Below are positions 2,618 to 41,076 of a stretch of DNA of 56,553 bases, one piece after another. The stretch lies in the NCBI GenBank assembly GCA_035403785.1, contig DAONFW010000006.1:1-56553 (forward strand), read 5' to 3'. This DNA comes from Minisyncoccota bacterium. GTDB taxonomy: Bacteria > Patescibacteriota > Minisyncoccia > Phycocordibacterales > UBA9973. Both the position numbers and the translations under genes were made by a program. Position 1 is the stretch's first letter. Each line of letters begins with the position of its first letter. The notes under the pieces are model-generated. The model saw only the letters and a list, made by a program, of their open reading frames with translations. It made no database searches and was not told the origin of the DNA.

Positions 2618-2688
2618 GGGCGGTTAGTTAAGTGGCATAACTACGGTCTCCAAAACCGTTGTCGGGAGTTCGATTCTCTCACCGCCCG
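2618..2688 (+). tRNA. tRNA-Trp (anticodon CCA)
   Basis: Cloverleaf read by eye: acceptor GGGCGGT/ACCGCCC, anticodon arm ACGGT-CTCCAAA-ACCGT, T arm GGGAG-TTCGATT-CTCTC. No encoded CCA. Confidence 0.9.
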
Positions 2689-2707
2689 CAAAAACAAGAA
2701 TAAAATT

Positions 2708-4633
2708 ATGGATAAAAATTCACGCAAAAAATACGTTAGAAGAAAAATCCAAGATATAAAAAGTAGGGCAAAACACGCTGCTGTTTATTCAAAAAAACTT
2801 ATTTCTCCGGTTTTTGGTTTTGGATTAAAAATGTCTGGTTTAATTTTATTTGGAATTTTATTGATTTTAGGAATTGTTAAGATTTTCTTTTTTGAAATAA
2901 AATATCAAGACAAGTTTTATCCGGGTGTCTATGTAGCAAATGAAAAAGTTGGAGGTTTAACATATGATGAGGCCGTAATACGTTTTAAGGAAAAGGTAGA
3001 AAATTTTAGAGCTAACGGAGTTAATGTCGAGATTGAAAACTCGCAGGGACTAAAAAAGAAAATAAATGTTCCAACTTTGACTGCTGGTTTGGCTGCGGAT
3101 AATACGATTGAATATTTTTTAATAAATGGATGGGAAAAGGATTTACAAAAAGCCTATCAGTGGGGACGTGGAAGCAGTGTTTTTCGTGATGTTTGGCAAC
3201 AAATAATTCTAATATTTACTAATAAAAATTTTGATTTTTCAAATTCTGTTCAAAAAGAAGCTGTTAGTTCTTTGCTTGAAAGTGAATTGAATAGTTTTTT
3301 AACAAAAAGCAAATCAGCTGAATTTTCTTTTGTCAAAAATAAACTAGTTATTTCTAAAGAGCAAGTCGGGGAGATTTTAAACAAAGAAGAAATTCTAAAT
3401 ATTTTGGCAAAAAAAGTTTCGCAGTTTGATACAGATATAGTTTATTTTAAAACCCAAGAAGATATTTCTGTTGTTAAAAAAGTTGATTTGGAAAAACACG
3501 CAACTTTTGTAGAAAATTTTGGAAATAAAATCAATTTCTCGTTTTTTTATAATGGTTTCAGGTGGTATGTAAAAGGAGCCAAATTTGTTAATTGGCTTAC
3601 TATTAACAGTAATAGTGAAAATTTAAATAGCGGTGAAAAAGAAATTTATTTAAATAAAAATAAATTAGAAAGTTATTTTTCTGAGAATATTGATAGACTA
3701 ATAGAAAATCCTCCAAGAAATAGTAGATTTGAAATAAGAAATGGAAAAATATTTGAGCTTGTTTCAAGCAAAAAAGGTAATGCGATAGATATTGAAAAAG
3801 TAGCTGAAGAAATAAATAAAATAATTAGTGATTCTAAAAACAATCTAGATCTTCAGAAAAAAACTTTTGATATACATATCGAGACAATTCAAATTGAGCC
3901 AAAAATAACCAAAGATTTGTTGTTAAAATATGAAATCAAAGATTTGATAGGTCGCGCTTCTACAAGTTTTGATGGAAGTAGTGCTGACCGCGAACATAAT
4001 ATAAGAACTGGAGTTTCTGCGATAAACGGAATTTTACTCGCGCCTGGTGAGGAGTTTTCTACTGTAAATTCTATTGGTCATGTTTCAGAGAAAGAAGGAT
4101 ATAGAAAAGAAACTGTAATTAAACAGAATAAGACAACGAAAGAATTTGGCGGTGGTTTGTGTCAGGTTGCGACAACTTTGTTTAGATTAGCTTTGAATAC
4201 TGGTCTGCCCATTACAGAAAGAATCAATCATCGTTTTACTGTGCCTTATTACGATCCGCCAGGTTTAGACGCAACTATTTATGGACCACATCCTGATCTG
4301 CGTTTTGTGAATGATACAGGAAATTATGTTTTGTTGCAGGCCAGAGTAGAAGGTAAAAAAATAATTATGGAATTTTACGGTAGAAAAGATGGTAGAATCG
4401 CAGAAGTTTCTAAACCAGTTGAATCAAATTGGATACCAGCACCAGCAACAAAATATATACCGACAAATTATCTTTCTGTTGGTCAGGTTAAATGTTCTGA
4501 AACACCACATTCAGGTTTAACCACTGATGTTTTGTATACAGTTAAATATCCCGATGGTATAACAAAACAAAGAAATTTTAGAAGTATTTATCAACCATGG
4601 CAAAAAGTTTGCTTGATCGGAGTTAGTTATTAG
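2708..4633 (+). CDS. VanW/YoaR-like membrane-anchored protein
   Basis: N-terminal TM helix. The C-terminal region has a VanW-type signature (GGGLCQVATTLFRLALNTGLPITERINH). Confidence 0.75.
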   Translation: MDKNSRKKYVRRKIQDIKSRAKHAAVYSKKLISPVFGFGLKMSGLILFGILLILGIVKIFFFEIKYQDKFYPGVYVANEKVGGLTYDEAVIRFKEKVENFRANGVNVEIENSQGLKKKINVPTLTAGLAADNTIEYFLINGWEKDLQKAYQWGRGSSVFRDVWQQIILIFTNKNFDFSNSVQKEAVSSLLESELNSFLTKSKSAEFSFVKNKLVISKEQVGEILNKEEILNILAKKVSQFDTDIVYFKTQEDISVVKKVDLEKHATFVENFGNKINFSFFYNGFRWYVKGAKFVNWLTINSNSENLNSGEKEIYLNKNKLESYFSENIDRLIENPPRNSRFEIRNGKIFELVSSKKGNAIDIEKVAEEINKIISDSKNNLDLQKKTFDIHIETIQIEPKITKDLLLKYEIKDLIGRASTSFDGSSADREHNIRTGVSAINGILLAPGEEFSTVNSIGHVSEKEGYRKETVIKQNKTTKEFGGGLCQVATTLFRLALNTGLPITERINHRFTVPYYDPPGLDATIYGPHPDLRFVNDTGNYVLLQARVEGKKIIMEFYGRKDGRIAEVSKPVESNWIPAPATKYIPTNYLSVGQVKCSETPHSGLTTDVLYTVKYPDGITKQRNFRSIYQPWQKVCLIGVSY

Positions 4634-5306
4634 CAAAAGCTAACTGAGTTTTTGTTGTATTATTTTCTTCTGTTTTATCTTCTATTGGTCTTATAACAAT
4701 AAGTTTTCTTTTCCAGCCGTTCATGAATTGAGAAACAGACACTGTTCTGATTCCGTCTTTTTTTCCTGGATCATTAAAATAAACAAAATTTTCGTCGTAA
4801 CCAGTTATGACGATTAAGTGCCCAAAAGAAAGCTTCGGATCAAAATTTCTATGAATAGAAGCTATTGCGGGGCCTTCGTCTATAATTTTTTTAAATTCTG
4901 ACAATGCAGTTGTTCTGTCGTAATCCCAAAAAGCGTGAACTTTTCCGATGAGTCCGTAACGAGATGCCAATTTTGCTAAACCATCATGACTCCAACCAAC
5001 ATTTTTTACATAAGCTCCAGATTTTATTCCATTTTCTAAAACAGCTTGAACATTTGTTGTTTCAGGTTTGTAATAGTTTACAAGCATTGCAACGTCTGCA
5101 ACCCCGCAACCTTTTTGTTGCCATTTAGTCCAAGAAATATCTCGTATCTGTGAGTAAAGGGGAACATCGTAAGGCATTGTTATTTTTTTCTCTTCAACAA
5201 TTTCTTGAGTTGGTTTATTAGAATCAGAAAAAAACTGGCCCATCTGAAGGTCTGTTTGAGTAACACTGTTATATAGAATTGTCGTTAAAACTGTAATTGA
5301 AAACAT
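4623..5306 (-). CDS. secreted C39-like cysteine peptidase domain protein
   Basis: Signal-like N-terminus and the C39_2-type motif YDVPLYSQ...GCGVADVAMLVNYY. The start is moved to MFSITV because the track's extra codons spell an extended -10 (TGCTATTAT) 6 nt upstream. Confidence 0.6.
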   Translation of the reverse strand: MFSITVLTTILYNSVTQTDLQMGQFFSDSNKPTQEIVEEKKITMPYDVPLYSQIRDISWTKWQQKGCGVADVAMLVNYYKPETTNVQAVLENGIKSGAYVKNVGWSHDGLAKLASRYGLIGKVHAFWDYDRTTALSEFKKIIDEGPAIASIHRNFDPKLSFGHLIVITGYDENFVYFNDPGKKDGIRTVSVSQFMNGWKRKLIVIRPIEDKTEENNTTKTQLAFANN

Positions 5307-5354
5307 ATTAAAATAATAGCACAAATTATGTGAAAAGTCAATAAATACAAGCTT

Positions 5355-5582
5355 TTAATTCCAGATTAAATCCCAGAACTTTTTGAGAGATTTTTTTGTA
5401 TCTTTTTCTATTTTTTCAAATCTTTTACCCCACTTTGATTCTTTTTCCAAAAATAACCAAATTAGCACAAAAAAACCTATAATTAAGCCAGCCAGAACCG
5501 CCCATTTGAATATAGTAAAGCCAAAAATCAATAAAATAGCTAAATAAACAACTATTGGTATTAAATAATCATACAACATCAT
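5355..5582 (-). CDS. small two-TM membrane protein, unknown function
   Basis: 75-aa ORF with two clear hydrophobic helices and a basic C-terminus. Confidence 0.5.
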   Translation of the reverse strand: MMLYDYLIPIVVYLAILLIFGFTIFKWAVLAGLIIGFFVLIWLFLEKESKWGKRFEKIEKDTKKSLKKFWDLIWN

Positions 5583-5643
5583 GGTTACTTATTATTTTAA
5601 CACAAATTTGCTTTGTTTTGAACAATACTGCTATACTAAAAAT

Positions 5644-6036
5644 ATGAGTGTAGAAGAATTTCCACCAATTAAAAAAGATAAAAAACCAGAGGAAGAAAAT
5701 GCAAAGGTCATGTTACTCCATGCTTTTAATCAATTTATTGAATTTAAAACATTTATCAAACTTATCAGAAAGAGTGAAGAAACTGGTAATAAAAGCGGAC
5801 TTTCTTATAGTGAAATAAAGAAAATATTAAAAAATACAGAATTTAAAAACTTAGAAGAAATTACAGAGCATGTTTTTTCTTTGGAAGAACTTGAAAAAAT
5901 AAGACCGGGAATTGGAGAAATATATAAAACATTAGTAAAAGAATTTAAAAGACCAAATTTAAAATTGGAGGAACTGGAATATTATATATCCATGGTAGAA
6001 GATTTGATTAAGGATGTACAGAGTTATAAAATTTAA
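5644..6036 (+). CDS. hypothetical protein
   Basis: ORF with an ATG 6 nt downstream of TGCTATACT (5629-5637). Charged, helical-looking sequence with no recognisable family. Confidence 0.5.
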   Translation: MSVEEFPPIKKDKKPEEENAKVMLLHAFNQFIEFKTFIKLIRKSEETGNKSGLSYSEIKKILKNTEFKNLEEITEHVFSLEELEKIRPGIGEIYKTLVKEFKRPNLKLEELEYYISMVEDLIKDVQSYKI

Positions 6037-6938
6037 TTTTTAAAAACTTTTTGAAAAATATCTTTTTTGTCTGTTTTACCAGGATCAAACCAAATTATTT
6101 CTTTATCTCTTTTGAACCAAGCCATTTGGCGTTTTGCAAATTTATTTATTTCAGAGTTTAATTTTTCTAAATATTCTTTTTTGGTTAATTTTTTCTGCAG
6201 ATATAACGCAGTGTATCTGTATTCAAGACCCAGTTCTTCCATGCGTTTCCAACTTAAGCCATTTTTGTGTAGATTTCTAATTTCTCGCAACATGCCGGCT
6301 TTGATTCTATTGTTTAATCTTTTCTCTATGCGCTCTTTCAGAACATCATTCGGCATTGTTAGACCAATTTTTATAAATTCATATTTTTGATCTTTTTTAT
6401 TCTTAGAATCAGCAAGTTTTGGCACTTTGCCGAGAGCTTTTGCGATTTCAATAGCTCTGATTAATCTGACTTTATTTTTAGCATCAATATTTTTTGCGCG
6501 AGATTTGTCTAATTTTTTTAACATTTCAAAAAGTTGGCTAGCAGTTTTTTTATTTAAACTAGCTCTAAGTTTTTCATTCGGTGGAACTTCAGGAAAAGTC
6601 ACATTATTAATAACAGAATCAATATAAAATCCCGTGCCACCACAGATTATTGGCACTTTGTTTCTTGAAATTATTTCTGTTATTTTCTGATCAGCTAATT
6701 CTTTGAATTCCGCAACCGTGAATCTGTTTTTTGCATTTGCCACGTCTAATAGAAAGTGGGGGATTTTCTGCATTTCTTTTTTTGTGATTTTACCCGTGCC
6801 CAAATCAAGACCAGTATAAACTTGCCTAGAATCAGCAGAAATCACTTCTCCGCCTATTTTCTGCGCAATAAACACGGCCAAATCGCTCTTTCCAGTAGCT
6901 GTTGGACCTAAAATTACGATTATTTTTGGTTTGGGCAT
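6033..6938 (-). CDS. miaA: tRNA dimethylallyltransferase
   Basis: P-loop ILGPTATGKS at the N-terminus, IPP-transferase-like core, 301 aa. Confidence 0.9.
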   Translation of the reverse strand: MPKPKIIVILGPTATGKSDLAVFIAQKIGGEVISADSRQVYTGLDLGTGKITKKEMQKIPHFLLDVANAKNRFTVAEFKELADQKITEIISRNKVPIICGGTGFYIDSVINNVTFPEVPPNEKLRASLNKKTASQLFEMLKKLDKSRAKNIDAKNKVRLIRAIEIAKALGKVPKLADSKNKKDQKYEFIKIGLTMPNDVLKERIEKRLNNRIKAGMLREIRNLHKNGLSWKRMEELGLEYRYTALYLQKKLTKKEYLEKLNSEINKFAKRQMAWFKRDKEIIWFDPGKTDKKDIFQKVFKN

Positions 6939-7533: not shown

Positions 7534-9042
7534 TTATTTCAAAATCTTAATATCCGCGCCGATAGAATTTAATCTGCTTGCGATTTCTTCATAACCTCTG
7601 CTTATCATATATACGTTTCTGAGAATAGAAGTGCCGTTTGTGCCCAACATTGAAATTAAAATTATCATAGACGGTCTCAACGCTGGCGGACAGACAACTT
7701 GTGCTGGTTTCAAATTAGTTCCGCCTGTTATATAAACTCTATGTGGATCAGCAAGTGTAATATTTGCGCCAAGTCTATTTAACTCAGTAAAATAAATCGC
7801 TCTGTTTTCATAACTCCAATCGTGAATCATCGTTTGACCTTTTGCTTTTATCGCAATCGGCACAAAGAAAGGCAAGTTGTCCATGTTTATGCCGGGATAT
7901 GGATTCGCATGAATTTTGTCTTCCAACGCAATTAACTTAGACGGAAAAATTTTTAGATCTACTAATTTAGTTTTGTTATTATAAGAAAGATATTTTTTTA
8001 ATATTTTAAATTTTAAATTCATTCTTTTTAACTTTTCTAATTCTAAAGACAAGAAATCTATCGGCACGCGAGTGATAGTGAGCTCAGAATCTGTAATTAT
8101 TCCAGCAGAAATGAACATCATAGACTCAATCGGATCTTCACTGTTCCAGTATTCTATATCTTGGTTTATTTCTTTTACACCATGCACTGTAAGTGTAGAA
8201 GTACCAATGCCGTCTATTTGCACGCCTAGTTTTTCCAAAAAGAAACAAATTTCTTGCACCATGTAATTCGCACTAGCAAAACTAATTACAGTCTTGCCTG
8301 GAATTCTTGCAGCCGCTGTAAGAACATTTTCACAAGCAGTATCACCAGCTTCGTACATGACTATTTCTGCAGGTTTTAATTTTTTTGCTTCTATATTGTA
8401 AGAATTATTAGTAGTCTTTATTTTAATACCTAAATCTTCAAATGCATAAGTGTGCGCTGCGATTGTTCTTTTACCAAGATTGCATCCAGATGCATGAGGC
8501 AAAGAAAAGTTTTGCAAAAAATGCACAAGTGGCCCAATAGTCATTAAGACTGATCTAGTTTTAATCGCAGATTCTACGTTTATTTTTTCTAATTTAAAAA
8601 CTTTTGGTGGAATTATTTCTACAGTATTTTGCACTGTCCAATTTACTTTCACGCCGATACTTTCTAAAATTTCTATCACTCTGTTCACTTCTTCTATTCG
8701 CGCGATGCCGTGCAGTGTAGTTTTTCCTTTATTGAGTAGGGAAGCACACAAAAGTCCCACAGAGCCGTTTTTTGAAAAATTAGTAGTAATACTGCCAGAT
8801 AATTTCTTTCCACCAACAACTTGAAAATCCATAGAGTCATTTAGACAAACTAATTTGTGCTCTAAAACTTCACTAATTTTTGTAAGTAAATCAGTAGTAA
8901 AGTTTTGTTCGCCTTTTTCCATACGCGCAACCGCGCTCTGTGATGTGCTCAATGCTTTTGCGAATTCTCCCTGAGTCATACCGCGTTGTTCGCGTAATGT
9001 TTTGATAAAAGTTCCAATTTGTTTAGATTGTGAATTTTTCAT
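7534..9042 (-). CDS. murA: XRE-family HTH domain fused to UDP-N-acetylglucosamine 1-carboxyvinyltransferase
   Basis: The first ~65 aa are a Cro/C1-type HTH (LREQRGMTQGEFAKALSTSQSAVARMEKG). The rest aligns by eye to MurA: SKNG (K22/N23 equivalent), catalytic loop LPHASGCNLGKR (Cys115/Arg120 equivalent), YPGINMD (Asp305 equivalent). Confidence 0.85.
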   Translation of the reverse strand: MKNSQSKQIGTFIKTLREQRGMTQGEFAKALSTSQSAVARMEKGEQNFTTDLLTKISEVLEHKLVCLNDSMDFQVVGGKKLSGSITTNFSKNGSVGLLCASLLNKGKTTLHGIARIEEVNRVIEILESIGVKVNWTVQNTVEIIPPKVFKLEKINVESAIKTRSVLMTIGPLVHFLQNFSLPHASGCNLGKRTIAAHTYAFEDLGIKIKTTNNSYNIEAKKLKPAEIVMYEAGDTACENVLTAAARIPGKTVISFASANYMVQEICFFLEKLGVQIDGIGTSTLTVHGVKEINQDIEYWNSEDPIESMMFISAGIITDSELTITRVPIDFLSLELEKLKRMNLKFKILKKYLSYNNKTKLVDLKIFPSKLIALEDKIHANPYPGINMDNLPFFVPIAIKAKGQTMIHDWSYENRAIYFTELNRLGANITLADPHRVYITGGTNLKPAQVVCPPALRPSMIILISMLGTNGTSILRNVYMISRGYEEIASRLNSIGADIKILK

Positions 9043-32038: not shown

Positions 32039-32256
32039 AATTTTTATTATATCAAAACGAAGCTTCTCGAGCACCTAAAAAAGTGACAAAATTGACACAG
32101 ATTGGCATATAAATATTACAGCTATATGTAACTTTCATATGATATTTTTATATTTGACATCAATGATTCATTGTCGTAATCTTTAAGCGAAGGTCTAGCA
32201 CAAAGCTAGATCATAAACCATAAAACCCTTAATTAGGGAAAAGGAGGAAAGTTCTT

Positions 32257-33603
32257 ATGACAACAAAAAAAGAAAAAAACCCTGGAGCGATGGCTTTTTA
32301 TCATCAAGATGGATTGCCAGCTGCTTGGAAACAAGCTATGGAATTTGCGGGTAAGCATGGCCGCATAGCGACTATGCCCGACATCGTCTCGTTTAGAATA
32401 AAAACTAAACCTGGTGATGAACCCTGGGAAACCTACTACACTTCATTGACTGCTGAGTATGTTGGATACACCAAACATGGTAATAAAATTATTATTGTTG
32501 CCCATGGCATTGGTCCTATGTCCAATTTACAAGGCATACAAGAAGCCTACAGTTGGGAATACAAAGACAAAAGCCGAGATCACCGCGGTGGTAGGATTAC
32601 ACAGTCTGAATTCTGGGATTTGGAAAGTGGTAAATATGGAGATGTTGAAATTATCGATTTCAACGAATATTTTTCTCTCTATAAATATCCCTTTATTCAA
32701 ACTTTAAGAGCATCAGAAGCGATTACTGACCCTGTTCTTAGAGCTCGTTTTGGCCCACAGATTGAACAATATGTTCAAATTCATGTAGATGCTGCTCGTG
32801 CTTGGCACAGAGAAAAAGCTGGAATCAACCCGGAAAACAAGTACGAAGTTCCGGAAGAAATCCATATCCAATTCATTGATGGCCGCCGTAAAAAACACAT
32901 TAATAATGGCGCAGAAAATTCTGACCCTTTTATTATTCAGGTTGGAGATGCCTCAAATTGTAGTTATAAATATGTCAGTATCGAAAAAGGATATGCTTTG
33001 GCTCATTTAATTTCTACTGGCGGGTTGGTTCATTTACACCATGATGATAATGAAAGTTTAACCTTAGACGTTGATGCACACGAATGGCACAACGGAGTGC
33101 GTTTCATTGGCATTAAATCAAAAAAGGGAATTATCTCCGATGTTCAATCGGGCCCTGATGCTCACGAATTATTAAAAAAACATTGGAATGATTTAATGCG
33201 ACCTGTTGGTGGACAAATCATTTTAGGTTTTAGTTCCTTAATGGAAATGAGTGGGCAATGGTTTACTCAATACCCAAAAGTGGGAGCAAGAATAGACACG
33301 TGGGAGCCGGAATACAAGGTAACCAAAATAGAAAAAGTAGGTAACCCTATTTTATTCCGCACCACTGTTGGTGGTTACCATGGTTTCTTCAAGTTTGATA
33401 TCAAGGAAATTCAGTCTATCGCGCCGCCTAATGCCAACGCTTATCGTTTTGTCACCGATCCTGAAATTGAATGGAATGAAGGTAATCCAACTCACCACAC
33501 AGCCATGGCTCAATTTTACAGAATTGAAGCTGATACCACTAAACGATTAATTCGTTCATCTGAATTGGCTCGTGATTACGCGAAAATGATGTCGTTAATT
33601 TAA
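32257..33603 (+). CDS. 448-aa protein of unknown function (ORFan by eye)
   Basis: Long ORF with a strong SD (GGAAAAGGAGGAAAG) 7 nt before the ATG, its own promoter-like TTGACA-17-TAATCT, a leader hairpin and a GC-rich terminator. Less AT-rich than its neighbours. No family recognised. Confidence 0.75.
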   Translation: MTTKKEKNPGAMAFYHQDGLPAAWKQAMEFAGKHGRIATMPDIVSFRIKTKPGDEPWETYYTSLTAEYVGYTKHGNKIIIVAHGIGPMSNLQGIQEAYSWEYKDKSRDHRGGRITQSEFWDLESGKYGDVEIIDFNEYFSLYKYPFIQTLRASEAITDPVLRARFGPQIEQYVQIHVDAARAWHREKAGINPENKYEVPEEIHIQFIDGRRKKHINNGAENSDPFIIQVGDASNCSYKYVSIEKGYALAHLISTGGLVHLHHDDNESLTLDVDAHEWHNGVRFIGIKSKKGIISDVQSGPDAHELLKKHWNDLMRPVGGQIILGFSSLMEMSGQWFTQYPKVGARIDTWEPEYKVTKIEKVGNPILFRTTVGGYHGFFKFDIKEIQSIAPPNANAYRFVTDPEIEWNEGNPTHHTAMAQFYRIEADTTKRLIRSSELARDYAKMMSLI

Positions 33604-33628
33604 AAATTAGTTGTCACAATTTTACTAG

Positions 33629-33654
33629 ACCGCACTTAAACGTGCGGTTTTTTG
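33629..33654 (+). terminator. intrinsic terminator after the ORFan
   Basis: ACCGCAC (33629-33635) / GTGCGGT (33642-33648) followed by TTTTTT. Confidence 0.8.
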
Positions 33655-33664
33655 TATTTAGTGC

Positions 33665-33738
33665 TGGCTGGGAGACTAGGAATCGAACCTAGATTAAAGG
33701 CTTCAAAGGCCTCTGTCCTACCGTTAGACGATCTCCCA
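33665..33738 (-). tRNA. tRNA-Gln (anticodon TTG), CCA encoded
   Basis: Reverse complement: acceptor TGGGAGA/TCTCCCA (U1-A72 as in bacterial tRNA-Gln), anticodon loop CTTTGAA, T arm CTAGG-TTCGATT-CCTAG, 3' GCCA. Confidence 0.9.
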
Positions 33739-35549: not shown

Positions 35550-37247
35550 ATGAGAAAAATTTTTAAAAAAAGAAGAAGAGTAAAGAATGTAAATTTTTTC
35601 GTTGAACCAGACGAAATTTTTTTGGATTCAGAAAATATAGAACAATTTGATACGCAGCAGTTCGAAGGAAGAATCGAAAAGCCGATTGCTAAAAGAAATA
35701 TCATAATGCTTGGACTGGGATTTCTTTTAGTTTTTTTGGCTTTTACTGTCAGAGCTGGATATTTGCAAATTGATAAAGGCGACGAATATTTCCAAAGAAG
35801 TGAAGATAATACGCTTGAAAAACAAATAATTTTCGCTGACAGAGGCATTATTTATGACAGAAACAAAATAGAACTTGCTTGGAATAGCAAATCTGATATT
35901 GAAGGAAGTTTTCCAATAAGAAGATATTTATCTCCTGGATTTTCGCATTTATTGGGTTATATTAGCTATCCAATGCAAGATAAATCTGGAAATTATTGGC
36001 AAGAAGAAATAATCGGTAAAGACGGTTTAGAAAAACAATATGCTGAAAGATTAAAGGGAATTAACGGAACAAAAATAGTTGAAACAGATGCAAGAAAAAA
36101 AGTACATTCGGAAAATATGATAAATATTCCAGAACGCGGTGAAGATCTAGTCACGACGATAGATTCAAGAGTCCAAAAAGAATTATATTCTTTAATCAAA
36201 AGTATTTCTGACGCTAATGCTTTCAAAGGTGGCGCAGGAATGATCATGAATATTCAAAACGGAGAAATTATCACATCTACAAGTTATCCAGAATATGATT
36301 CAGAAATATTATCAACAGGAAAAGATAAGGCAGTAATCAGTAATTATTTCACAGACAAGAGAAAAGTTTTTATTGATAAAAATATTTCAGGACTTTACAC
36401 ACCTGGATCTATCATAAAGCCTTTTGTCGCGCTTGGTGCTTTGAACGAAAAAGTTATCACGCCGTATAAACAAATTCTTTCTACTGGTTCTATTTCAATT
36501 CCAAACCCGTACTTTCCAGACAAGCCGACTGTGTTCAAAGACTGGAAAGCTCACGGCTGGGTTGATATGAGAAGAGCATTGGCTGTTTCTTCGGACGTTT
36601 ATTTTTATGAAATCGGTGGAGGTTTCCAAGGACAAGACGGTATCGGAATTAGTAATATAGAAAAATACGCAAGACTTTTTGGAATTGGAGAAAAAACTGG
36701 AATTGATATTCCAGACGAAATCAGCGGAGTTATTCCAAATCCAGAATGGAAAGCAAAAAATTTCAAAGGGGACATTTGGCGAGTCGGAGATACTTATCAC
36801 ACAGCAATCGGTCAGTACGGATTTCAGGTTACGCCGATTCAAATGTTGCGCGCCTCAGCAGCAATTGCAAATTATGGAAAATTAGTTACGCCGCATTTGT
36901 TACTTGGCGATACGGAAAAAGAAGAAAAGTTTACGAATATTAATTTGAGTAGAGAATATTTTGATGTTGTTCGCGAAGGAATGCGTGGCGCTGTCACTTC
37001 GGGAACTTCCACTGCTTTGAACATTCCAAAAGCTGCAATTGCCGCAAAATCAGGTACCGCTCAGCTTGGATTGGCAAAAAACAGAGTAAACTCATGGATT
37101 ATGGGCTTTTTCCCATATGAAAACCCAAAATACGCTTTTGTTGTTCTAATGGAATCTGGGCCTTCTACTGGTACTGTTAGTGCTTCTTACGTAATGAGCC
37201 AGTTGGTGTGGTGGATGACTACAAATACACCAGAATACTTCGAATAA
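35550..37247 (+). CDS. mrdA: penicillin-binding protein 2 (class B transpeptidase)
   Basis: N-terminal TM helix, a dimerisation domain, and SxxK (GSIIKPF), SxN (SSDVYF) and KSG (KSGTA) motifs. Confidence 0.9.
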   Translation: MRKIFKKRRRVKNVNFFVEPDEIFLDSENIEQFDTQQFEGRIEKPIAKRNIIMLGLGFLLVFLAFTVRAGYLQIDKGDEYFQRSEDNTLEKQIIFADRGIIYDRNKIELAWNSKSDIEGSFPIRRYLSPGFSHLLGYISYPMQDKSGNYWQEEIIGKDGLEKQYAERLKGINGTKIVETDARKKVHSENMINIPERGEDLVTTIDSRVQKELYSLIKSISDANAFKGGAGMIMNIQNGEIITSTSYPEYDSEILSTGKDKAVISNYFTDKRKVFIDKNISGLYTPGSIIKPFVALGALNEKVITPYKQILSTGSISIPNPYFPDKPTVFKDWKAHGWVDMRRALAVSSDVYFYEIGGGFQGQDGIGISNIEKYARLFGIGEKTGIDIPDEISGVIPNPEWKAKNFKGDIWRVGDTYHTAIGQYGFQVTPIQMLRASAAIANYGKLVTPHLLLGDTEKEEKFTNINLSREYFDVVREGMRGAVTSGTSTALNIPKAAIAAKSGTAQLGLAKNRVNSWIMGFFPYENPKYAFVVLMESGPSTGTVSASYVMSQLVWWMTTNTPEYFE

Positions 37248-40569: not shown

Positions 40570-41076
40570 ATGAAAAAATCCATTAACGTTTCTGACAAAA
40601 TGCAAAAGAATTACAAATATCAGCTTGTAGAGCCGATGGGAAAAAACTTTGATTCTAGATTCAAACCAGATCTCACACCGAAACAAATGCTCAAGCTTGG
40701 GATTTTTGGTGGTAAATATATGACTGATTGTCAGAAAGAATTTCCAAAAGATTGGTATAAAGGCGTAAAACTTTCTCCGAAATTTCACGATCCAAAATTA
40801 AATTATTTCAAAGTTAATGCCAGCCAGCCACTTTCTGTGTGGCGCAAAAAAGGCTGGATTTACAAAGAAGATCCAAGAGGCTGGTTCCAATGGTATTGCA
40901 GATATTATATGGGCCGTAGAATACAAAAAGAAGATGACAGGCAAATCAAGCGCTGGCTGGCAATTCGCAGACATATAGCGCAAATTAAGAAAAATTGTAG
41001 GACAGGAGACGAATTTTGTCGTCCGGTACAAAGGCAGGCGGTTTTACACTGGGCTTACGATAGTCGAAAATTATAA
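40570..41076 (+). CDS. conserved-looking Trp/Arg-rich hypothetical protein
   Basis: 168-aa soluble ORF with a distinctive RGWFQWYCRYYMGRR...IKRW block. I cannot name the family. Confidence 0.55.
   Translation: MKKSINVSDKMQKNYKYQLVEPMGKNFDSRFKPDLTPKQMLKLGIFGGKYMTDCQKEFPKDWYKGVKLSPKFHDPKLNYFKVNASQPLSVWRKKGWIYKEDPRGWFQWYCRYYMGRRIQKEDDRQIKRWLAIRRHIAQIKKNCRTGDEFCRPVQRQAVLHWAYDSRKL

Follow-up and report, generated by a model that had tools for sequence, protein, structure and literature searches.

The window analyzed here, a stretch of 56,553 nucleotides from a Minisyncoccota bacterium (assembly GCA_035403785.1, contig DAONFW010000006.1, positions 1 to 56,553 of the forward strand), is a chromosome segment of 32.3% G+C that carries uvrB, uvrA, uvrC, def, a penicillin-binding protein (PBP) gene, rplI, parB, and similar genes, a content as expected for a Patescibacteria genome. 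Between def and a tRNA-Gln gene lies our subject, a forward-strand gene at positions 32257 to 33603 whose 448-residue product belongs, on the evidence of homologues, their alignment, and an AlphaFold2 (AF2) model, to an unnamed family of Patescibacteria proteins. The gene is a self-contained monocistronic unit, and we refer to it, together with its own promoter, leader, and terminator, as the cassette. The closest structural relative of the protein is AvpA, the variable protein of a diversity-generating retroelement (DGR) from Nanoarchaeota, which founds a new C-type-lectin (CLec) fold subclass with three motifs (PMC5006420). What is new at this locus is a two-domain, bacterial, AvpA-like protein that is not part of a DGR and is preceded by a hitherto undescribed leader RNA motif.

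A preliminary description, made from the sequence alone, had presented the gene as a compositionally foreign ORFan. Its reading frame of 448 codons holds up, as do two further statements: that the product has neither a transmembrane helix nor a signal peptide (in a hydropathy scan neither was seen: Kyte-Doolittle values over 19 residues peak at 0.91, and the protein starts with a hydrophilic N-terminus) and that it carries a His/Asp-rich patch, LVHLHHDDNESLTLDVDAHEWHNG, which occupies residues 257 to 280 (33025 to 33096). Outside the cassette, on the reverse strand at 33665 to 33738, is the tRNA-Gln(UUG) gene, detected by ARAGORN and matched over its full length by the Rfam tRNA model (64.8 bits). 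As had been pointed out, its 3′ end is directed toward the gene. It lies 61 nucleotides from the stop codon and only a few nucleotides past the T-run of the terminator, and the tRNA is intact.

A widespread but unnamed protein family

The label of ORFan does not stand, in that a word-indexed search recovered 310 homologues at E ≤ 1e-3. Among the best 120 of these 310, identity to the query is 52 to 78% over at least 91% of its length, and the proteins measure 418 to 545 residues; the named members are annotated as “hypothetical protein” and their taxa, where given, are Patescibacteria, Parcubacteria, Paceibacterota, or Falkowbacteria. When 1.84 billion representatives were searched exhaustively with a profile, 461 clusters (50% identity) came up at E ≤ 1e-3, with 207 at E ≤ 1e-30. 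A scan of the GTDB species genomes yielded 59 family loci, most of them with Patescibacteria-type labels (Paceibacterota, Yanofsky-, Kerfeld-, Falkow-, Levyi-, Vogel-, Komeili-, Collier-, Nomura-, Moranii-, Staskawicz-, and Uhrbacteria, and Saccharimonadia), and identity among these loci goes down to about 30% across many candidate phyla. At the other extreme, 10 contigs from several samples encode exactly this protein. In an alignment of 34 members, 49 columns are invariant and mean column identity is 53%; the invariant or near-invariant polar residues are H83, R113, E118, R164, H184, E266, D271, H275, K341, and D347.

The preliminary description recognized no family in the protein, and the libraries agree: no model of Pfam, NCBIfam, PADLOC, or PHROGs matches it, a Pfam scan of the 34 members at E ≤ 10 returned nothing consistent, and a literature search found no paper describing the family. 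With so many homologues and no library model, the family is abundant yet unnamed and, as far as sampled, appears confined to the Patescibacteria, the candidate phyla radiation (CPR).

Several irregular members deserve mention. Nine loci (L023, L030, L035, L036, L047, L051, L055, L065, and L071) come from metagenome-assembled genomes labeled Gammaproteobacteria, Pseudomonadales, Cyanobacteria, Bdellovibrionales, Alphaproteobacteria, or Obscuribacterales, and their contigs carry both the family gene and the leader motif described below; these are probably mislabeled or misbinned CPR contigs. In three others the family frame ends early (at 4116 in L029, 3645 in L067, and 3270 in L069) while homology runs on to about 4300 to 4390, and these stops may be frameshifts, pseudogenes, or assembly errors. 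Two groundwater Parcubacteria proteins, P0052 and P0089 (542 and 545 residues), end in a conserved stretch of about 90 extra residues (…LALLNDPQPGLM(S/T)WH…) not seen in other family members.

An AvpA-type fold with a conserved putative counterpart of the variable region

The AF2 model built with the family alignment is of high quality (predicted local distance difference test score [pLDDT] 89.6; predicted template modeling score [pTM] 0.82). A Foldseek search of the PDB with this model gave AvpA (5ioo_A) as the sole significant match (E = 8.5e-9, probability 1.0, TM score 0.75 normalized to AvpA, 280 columns), and phmmer aligned residues 25 to 184 with AvpA residues 17 to 171 (E = 1.2e-3). 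We take the protein to be soluble and two-domain, with residues ~10 to 290 (32284 to 33126) predicted to fold as AvpA around an insert of about 60 residues (~185 to 245), and residues ~293 to 448 (33133 to 33600) predicted to form a separate, beta-rich C-terminal domain (pLDDT of the domain model, 82). For the latter, a profile sequence search detected no relative in the PDB, and Foldseek with the domain model found no significant one, returning a weak dodecin-like submotif (E about 0.4). The viral structures of BFVD yielded no match to the protein.

The CLec fold of the AvpA subclass comprises a beta1/beta5 pairing, two helices, a beta2-3-4-4′ sheet, and inserts 2 to 4, and its motifs are GxxVVVYAH in beta3, HPxxxPFxG in insert 4, and RFxGV in beta5 (residues 205 to 209, right after the variable region [VR] at 181 to 203) (PMC5006420). 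The first has its counterpart in G75-NKIIIVAH83, which phmmer pairs with GNPVVVYVH of AvpA and in which G75 and H83 are invariant across the family. The third, assigned by motif and fold, corresponds to R282-FIGI286 (family consensus RLVGI); R282 and the nearby G280 are likewise invariant. The second is only partly kept: the region reads …ITDPVLRARFG, with D158, P159, and G166 conserved, and both the His and the PF spacing are lost (D158-P159…F165-G166).

The His/Asp-rich patch sits just before the RFIGI strand, as the VR precedes RFxGV in AvpA. On this positional ground, we infer that the patch is the putative equivalent of the variable, ligand-binding segment of AvpA, but a conserved one. 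Among the 34 aligned members, L257, S267, L268, W277, and G280 are invariant and E266, D271, and H275 are present in at least 90%, while the His residues of the HLHH stretch (259, 261, and 262) vary. The patch segment on its own had no match among PDB sequences.

The likeness to AvpA (5IOO; Handa et al. 2016, PMC5006420) thus covers the fold of residues ~10 to 290, a weak sequence similarity over residues 25 to 184, and two of the motifs, and it extends to the hosts, which are ultra-small and probably symbiotic in both cases. The differences are equally clear. In the loci covered, the family has no template repeat (TR), no reverse transcriptase (RT), and no variability; it carries the ~60-residue insert ahead of the VR equivalent and an extra 155-residue C-terminal domain, making the protein nearly twice as long; and its hosts are bacterial (CPR) and not archaeal. 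AvpA-like proteins outside DGRs have also been listed (PMC5006420).

A conserved promoter and leader

A putative sigma-70-type promoter can be read from the sequence on the forward strand, with TTGACA at 32154 to 32159, a 17-nucleotide spacer, and TAATCT at 32177 to 32182, as first proposed. A consensus scanner missed it because TAATCT matches only three of the six positions of TATAAT. The same TTGACA-17-TAATCT element is found in the locus with the closest family relative (L013), and many homologous loci have a TTGAC(A/T) box in the corresponding position. The long leader of the preliminary description is real but measures about 65 to 75 nucleotides from the predicted start site, not ~90. Its 8-bp hairpin was also correctly seen: at 32192 to 32212, GGUCUAGC (32192 to 32199) pairs with GCUAGAUC (32205 to 32212) around a 5-nucleotide loop in both the minimum free energy (MFE) and the centroid structures, and the leader as a whole has a folding z of −3.28. 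Most of 52 homologous leaders have a stable hairpin of unrelated sequence in the same place (mean z = −1.75; 37 below −1).

Downstream of this hairpin, at 32212 to 32247, is the motif YCYAAAA-[4-bp stem]-UAAWY-[stem]-AAAGGAG, with its stem at 32226 to 32229 and 32235 to 32238 and leading into the Shine-Dalgarno (SD) sequence AAGGAGG at 32241 to 32247. The SD had been reported before; it ends 9 nucleotides ahead of the ATG, not 7. Upstream regions from otherwise unrelated contexts share the same layout, namely, TTGAC(A/T), one or two hairpins of unrelated sequence, YCYAAAA-CCNN-UAAAC-NNGG-AAAGGAG, and a start codon about 7 to 10 nucleotides further on. A 36-nucleotide covariance model of the motif (R1), seeded with 14 leaders of equal length and searched over 515 kb, gave one match per locus directly upstream of the family gene at 53 loci and one weak match elsewhere; the match at 32212 to 32247 is the only one in the window. 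Compensatory double changes occur in each of the four stem pairs (C-G to U-A or A-U; 26 cells), and 94.7% of the stem cells are paired against 83.6% in shuffles, none of 500 of which reaches the observed value; controls slid along the alignment collapse. The R1 alignment was fitted to the model, which favors structure, but independent stem variants can also be seen by eye: CCCC/GGGG, CCUC/GAGG, UCCC/GGGA, CCCA/UGGG, CCCU/AGGG, and GCCUU/AAGGC. RNAalifold applied to a plain MAFFT alignment of the leaders predicted no structure, since variable loop lengths misalign the short stem. Rfam 15 has no match to the leader of the window (E ≤ 10) or to those of nine other loci (E ≤ 1).

Some features of the leader go beyond the model. 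In certain MFE folds (L006, L014, and L063), a pyrimidine tract upstream of the SD pairs with it, which it does not do in the window, and sequestration of the SD by this tract is speculative. The loops of the upstream hairpins often read AUGGU, AUUGUG, or CAGUGG on differing stems (L016, L017, L004, L022, L006, L014, L020, L060, L001, L028, and L059), and a GU(K)CAUU…CAUCC segment stands ahead of the conserved motif in many leaders; these recurrences hint at further conserved elements outside the 36 nucleotides.

At the other end of the cassette, the GC-rich terminator described earlier was recovered by a terminator scan on the forward strand at 33627 to 33660, with a 9-bp stem (five G-C pairs; 33627 to 33650) followed by a T-run. 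Terminators are not homologous between loci: homology of the window with L013, and that between L054 and L058, ends at the stop codon.

These signals are alien to the local norm, in which the preliminary description had rightly seen genes without an SD that start close to their −10 box. Of 19 genes called between 22992 and 42327, 18 have no SD, the gene under study being the sole one that does, and many have a TATAAT-like box 5 to 10 nucleotides before the ATG. Such a spacing leaves room for leaderless or near-leaderless transcripts and suggests that the mRNAs of this organism are mostly leaderless or very short-leadered. In five other hosts of the family, an SD-like 4-mer precedes 8 of 52 flanking genes, so the SD-led design is atypical there too.

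The 5′ stem-loop of Escherichia coli ompA and the leader of Bacillus subtilis aprE are 5′ stabilizers, or hairpins that present the ribosome-binding site, in long-lived and highly translated mRNAs. The family leaders resemble them in combining a stable 5′-proximal hairpin with a strong SD in an A-rich context, but their SD-proximal 4-bp hairpin with its YCYAAAA and AAAGGAG flanks is specific to the family and absent from Rfam 15.

Base composition

That the gene is richer in G+C than its neighbors, at first judged by eye, is confirmed by computation: its 39.6% compares with a mean of 32.1% for the others (standard deviation, 2.7; z = 2.8) and is the highest among the 52 open reading frames (ORFs) of at least 120 codons in the window. 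All three codon positions are raised (GC1, GC2, and GC3 of 0.49, 0.38, and 0.32, respectively), and the GC3 is the second highest of the 52. In 600-nucleotide windows the gene peaks at 0.41; a segment inside the PBP gene (36500 to 37099) reaches 0.417, so the peak is not unique.

The further step, that the gene is compositionally foreign, fails when the family is considered. At 54 loci we set the gene against the flanking ORFs of 120 codons or more (Wilcoxon test) and found it to be richer at GC1 in 49 (mean excess, 7.1 points; p = 4.6e-9), at GC2 in 45 (3.4 points; p = 3.1e-6), and at GC3 in 50 (12.6 points; p = 2.8e-9). A regression of gene GC3 on host GC3 over these loci has a slope of 0.98 and an intercept of +0.14 (r = 0.77), and the G+C content of family genes ranges from 34% in hosts of 29% to 64% in hosts of 59%. 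An excess in 50 of 54 genomes together with such a slope indicates a gene that is adapted to its host and bears a constant family offset. Raised G+C, above all at GC3, is therefore an intrinsic trait of the family, added to whatever composition the host has; a fresh import would show the reverse pattern.

At four-fold degenerate sites, the gene in the window has an excess of C-ending codons (z = +2.4) and a deficit of A-ending ones (z = −2.2), much as rplI does, and the C-ending excess is as expected under translational selection. Across the family, C/(C+T) and G/(G+A) both rise by about 16 points, and the G-ending codons of Gln, Lys, and Glu rise as much as the C-ending ones. A separate ORF of 168 codons at 40570 to 41076 (forward strand), to which Pfam has no match, has the top GC3 of the window (0.36), and its four-fold codons are C-rich, resembling those of the studied gene and of rplI.

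Changing neighborhoods and a bias toward tRNA 3′ ends

Each genome inspected surrounds the cassette with different neighbors. When 200 neighboring ORFs at 56 loci were classified by Pfam, they proved to be ordinary housekeeping genes; no partner recurred, and no family of integrases or transposases was represented more than once. In the closest relative, L013, whose host has 31% G+C, the family protein is 77% identical and the backbone is syntenic with positions 1.1 to 6.9 kb of the window (alr, 59% identity; tRNA-Trp; miaA, about 57 to 66%); there the cassette lies between tRNA-Trp and miaA, 26 kb away from where the window has it. That the gene is more alike than the backbone is consistent with a slowly evolving gene that was inherited vertically and then relocated. 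In species pairs with family proteins 78 to 90% identical (six at 84 to 90%), no other homology is present within 3 kb on either side, and in one pair, L054 and L058, the nucleotide homology (90.7%) begins near the −10 box and is lost shortly before the stop codon. The closest homologues of def (66 to 71% identical) occur in unrelated contexts.

The tRNA-Trp–miaA stretch is itself variable (2618 to 6938 in the window; 1933 to 5679 in L013). It holds in the window a VanW/PG-binding protein (2708 to 4633), a C39-like peptidase (4623 to 5306, reverse strand), and an ORF without an assigned family (5581 to 6036), and in L013 a small membrane protein besides the family cassette; it may be a second hotspot at a tRNA 3′ end.

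At 11 of the 59 loci the cassette has a tRNA gene no more than 300 nucleotides away. The number expected is 2.7 (p = 7e-5), calculated from how densely tRNA clusters occur in the outer flanks, which amount to only 302 kb. In all 11 the 3′ end of the tRNA faces the cassette. The preliminary description had seen neither an integrase nor, on the opposite side of the gene, a repeat of the tRNA 3′ end. Both observations are upheld: there is no integrase among the Pfam matches of genes called at ~22.3 to 42.7 kb, and no att-like repeat of the tRNA end rises above chance in the window or at the 10 other tRNA-adjacent loci. No viral contig of IMG/VR carries a copy of the gene.

A different picture is presented by L058, where the cassette lies downstream of smpB and ssrA (the transfer-messenger RNA [tmRNA] gene, at 1638 to 2044) and is bracketed by 144-nucleotide direct repeats (2701 to 2844 and 4367 to 4510; 91% identity), each ending in TCTCCACA(G), the 3′-terminal 9-mer of the tmRNA. 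A 62-nucleotide repeat (2038 to 2099 and 2837 to 2898), consisting of the tmRNA end and its terminator, flanks an ORF with a CYTH domain. These repeats look like the scars of serial integration at ssrA, and L048 has the same arrangement of tmRNA and cassette.

In several respects the cassette thus resembles moron-like cassettes and the islands found at tRNA and tmRNA 3′ ends: it is an autonomous promoter-to-terminator unit of atypical composition and translation signals, occurs in variable positions, is enriched at tRNA 3′ ends, and has att-like repeats at ssrA in L058. It differs from them in that no prophage, integrase, or transposase is found nearby and no tRNA end is duplicated at the 11 tRNA-adjacent loci, while the protein is under strong purifying selection across the superphylum and its G+C content tracks the host. 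Judged as a tRNA-integrated element, it occupies the site at the tRNA 3′ end and has neither an integrase nor a tRNA repeat at the far border, the element being a single gene.

Origin and probable role of the cassette

Taking these findings together, we propose as a fairly probable account that this is an old, host-adapted, relocating, and probably strongly expressed cassette that encodes a binder of a ligand in a fixed pocket, or an enzyme. The putative counterpart of the segment that the DGR hypermutates in AvpA is fixed here (E266, D271, H275, and W277), and a fixed, conserved segment suggests that one invariant ligand, not a changing one, is bound or acted on. Ligand binding as such, considered by itself, is a tentative assignment, somewhat short of an even chance. 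The expression module travels with the gene, comprising a promoter with a near-consensus −35 box, a hairpin of the 5′ stabilizer type, the covarying 4-bp hairpin before the SD, and the terminator; in hosts whose genes mostly have no SD or leader, such a module probably confers strong SD-dependent translation. The unit of promoter, leader, and ORF would relocate over evolutionary time and would probably be exchanged between Patescibacteria, with a preference for sites next to tRNA and tmRNA 3′ ends.

Several points weigh against this account. The family profile matches AvpA only at E = 0.12, more weakly than the single sequence does, so the homology rests mainly on predicted structure, and the VR was mapped by motif position and not by a residue-level structural alignment. 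High expression is suggested by the expression signals and the codon pattern only, and the codon evidence is ambiguous: the family-wide rise of G-ending codons fits translational selection poorly and could instead reflect a general drive on GC3, e.g., a recombination-associated GC bias. Among the 200 neighbors no partner gene or conserved neighbor gives a functional clue, nor did a ligand emerge, and no recurrent integrase or transposase family among these ORFs and no att repeat at the tRNA-adjacent loci would explain relocation; the small extent of the flanks behind the tRNA expectation belongs here as well.

One alternative is that the conserved His, Asp, and Glu residues form the catalytic metal site of a metal-dependent enzyme on a CLec/FGE-like scaffold. 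The high conservation over the full length, with its near-invariant polar residues, would suit an enzyme, enzymes with a CLec fold exist (FGE and sulfoxide synthase; cited in PMC5006420), and the protein, having no signal peptide, is probably cytoplasmic. The FGE-type CLec proteins (Mtd, TvpA, FGE, and the C-terminal domain of EgtB; PF03781) share the broad fold class, in which the last beta-strands form the ligand-binding or catalytic surface. However, none of the 34 members matches PF03781 at E ≤ 10, sequence and profile searches matched neither FGE-sulfatase nor any other enzyme family, and FGE-type proteins are absent from the significant Foldseek matches, which consist of AvpA alone, itself only distantly related to FGE-type CLec proteins (PMC5006420). 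The HLHH histidines are unconserved, and the gene has no metabolic neighborhood. We consider a metal enzyme of this kind rather unlikely, although it fares best among the alternatives.

Another is the preliminary description's own proposal of a horizontally acquired single-gene cargo, taken to have arrived recently at the tRNA-Gln 3′ end from a donor of different composition. Part of it stands: the cassette is monocistronic, its expression signals are unlike those usual in the surroundings (the sole SD-led gene among 19), it ends a few nucleotides from the tRNA 3′ end in a family enriched at such ends, its G+C is the highest of 52 ORFs, and its site is not conserved, L013 having the gene elsewhere in an otherwise syntenic backbone. 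The ORFan status and the foreign G+C have fallen away. The GC offset is family-wide with a slope of about 1 (39.6% here against 52 to 64% in GC-richer hosts), so that the gene has ameliorated to this host; the nearest homologue, at 77%, is in an equally AT-rich relative with backbone proteins 59 to 66% identical; and conservation of the SD and leader extends to the whole family, so they are not specific to a donor. The searches for an integrase, an att repeat at the tRNA-adjacent loci, a phage context, or a viral copy in IMG/VR found none. Recent import is thus improbable.

Still less probable is an abundant structural or assembly protein (a shell, a filament, or a nonclassically exported surface layer) in which surface conservation reflects packing contacts. 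In its favor, the 52 to 78% identity among the best 120 of 310 homologues spans diverse CPR lineages and includes probable surface positions, the expression signals are typical of very abundant proteins, and the gene is monocistronic without partner genes; on the other hand, the model bears no likeness to capsid, encapsulin, cytoskeletal, or S-layer protein structures, and AvpA is a monomer (PMC5006420). Finally, a DGR target like AvpA, with the His/Asp patch as its variable region, is rejected as hardly credible despite AvpA being the sole structural relative and DGRs being common in Patescibacteria (PMC11661182), for neither the 56.5-kb window nor the flanks at 57 loci contain a TR-like copy of any portion of the gene, no RT is found among the Pfam annotations of genes called at ~22.3 to 42.7 kb and no RT family recurs among the 200 neighbors, few segments are as well conserved as the candidate region, and the identical protein is present on 10 contigs from several samples.

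Returning to the old, relocating cassette, a bolder version may be formulated, to which we attach a low probability: a self-contained, integrase-less mobile cassette that spreads among Patescibacteria and settles next to tRNA and tmRNA 3′ ends by means of a recombinase acting in trans or another mechanism, with a leader representing a new class of cis-acting RNA for SD-dependent high-level or regulated translation in hosts with largely leaderless genes of their own, and a protein that would be a domesticated descendant, of fixed specificity, of a DGR-diversified AvpA scaffold serving an episymbiotic lifestyle.

Elsewhere in the window, at 7534 to 9042 on the reverse strand, we noted an EPSP-synthase-family (MurA-like) protein with an N-terminal HTH_3 domain, an unusual fusion.

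Implications

The Patescibacteria account for a large part of the diversity of bacteria, and most of their conserved lineage-specific proteins are without an assigned function. The family described here links one such bacterial protein to the AvpA subclass of the lectin fold, so far known from archaeal retroelement targets, and presents the AvpA scaffold in a fixed, nondiversified form fused to a new domain. It also illustrates that genes that appear compositionally foreign can be old residents with an intrinsic composition of their own, a point that matters for calls of horizontal gene transfer made from composition only. Further, a covarying leader outside Rfam, joined to a canonical SD in genomes otherwise poor in SD sequences, provides a handle on translation initiation and gene expression in the CPR.

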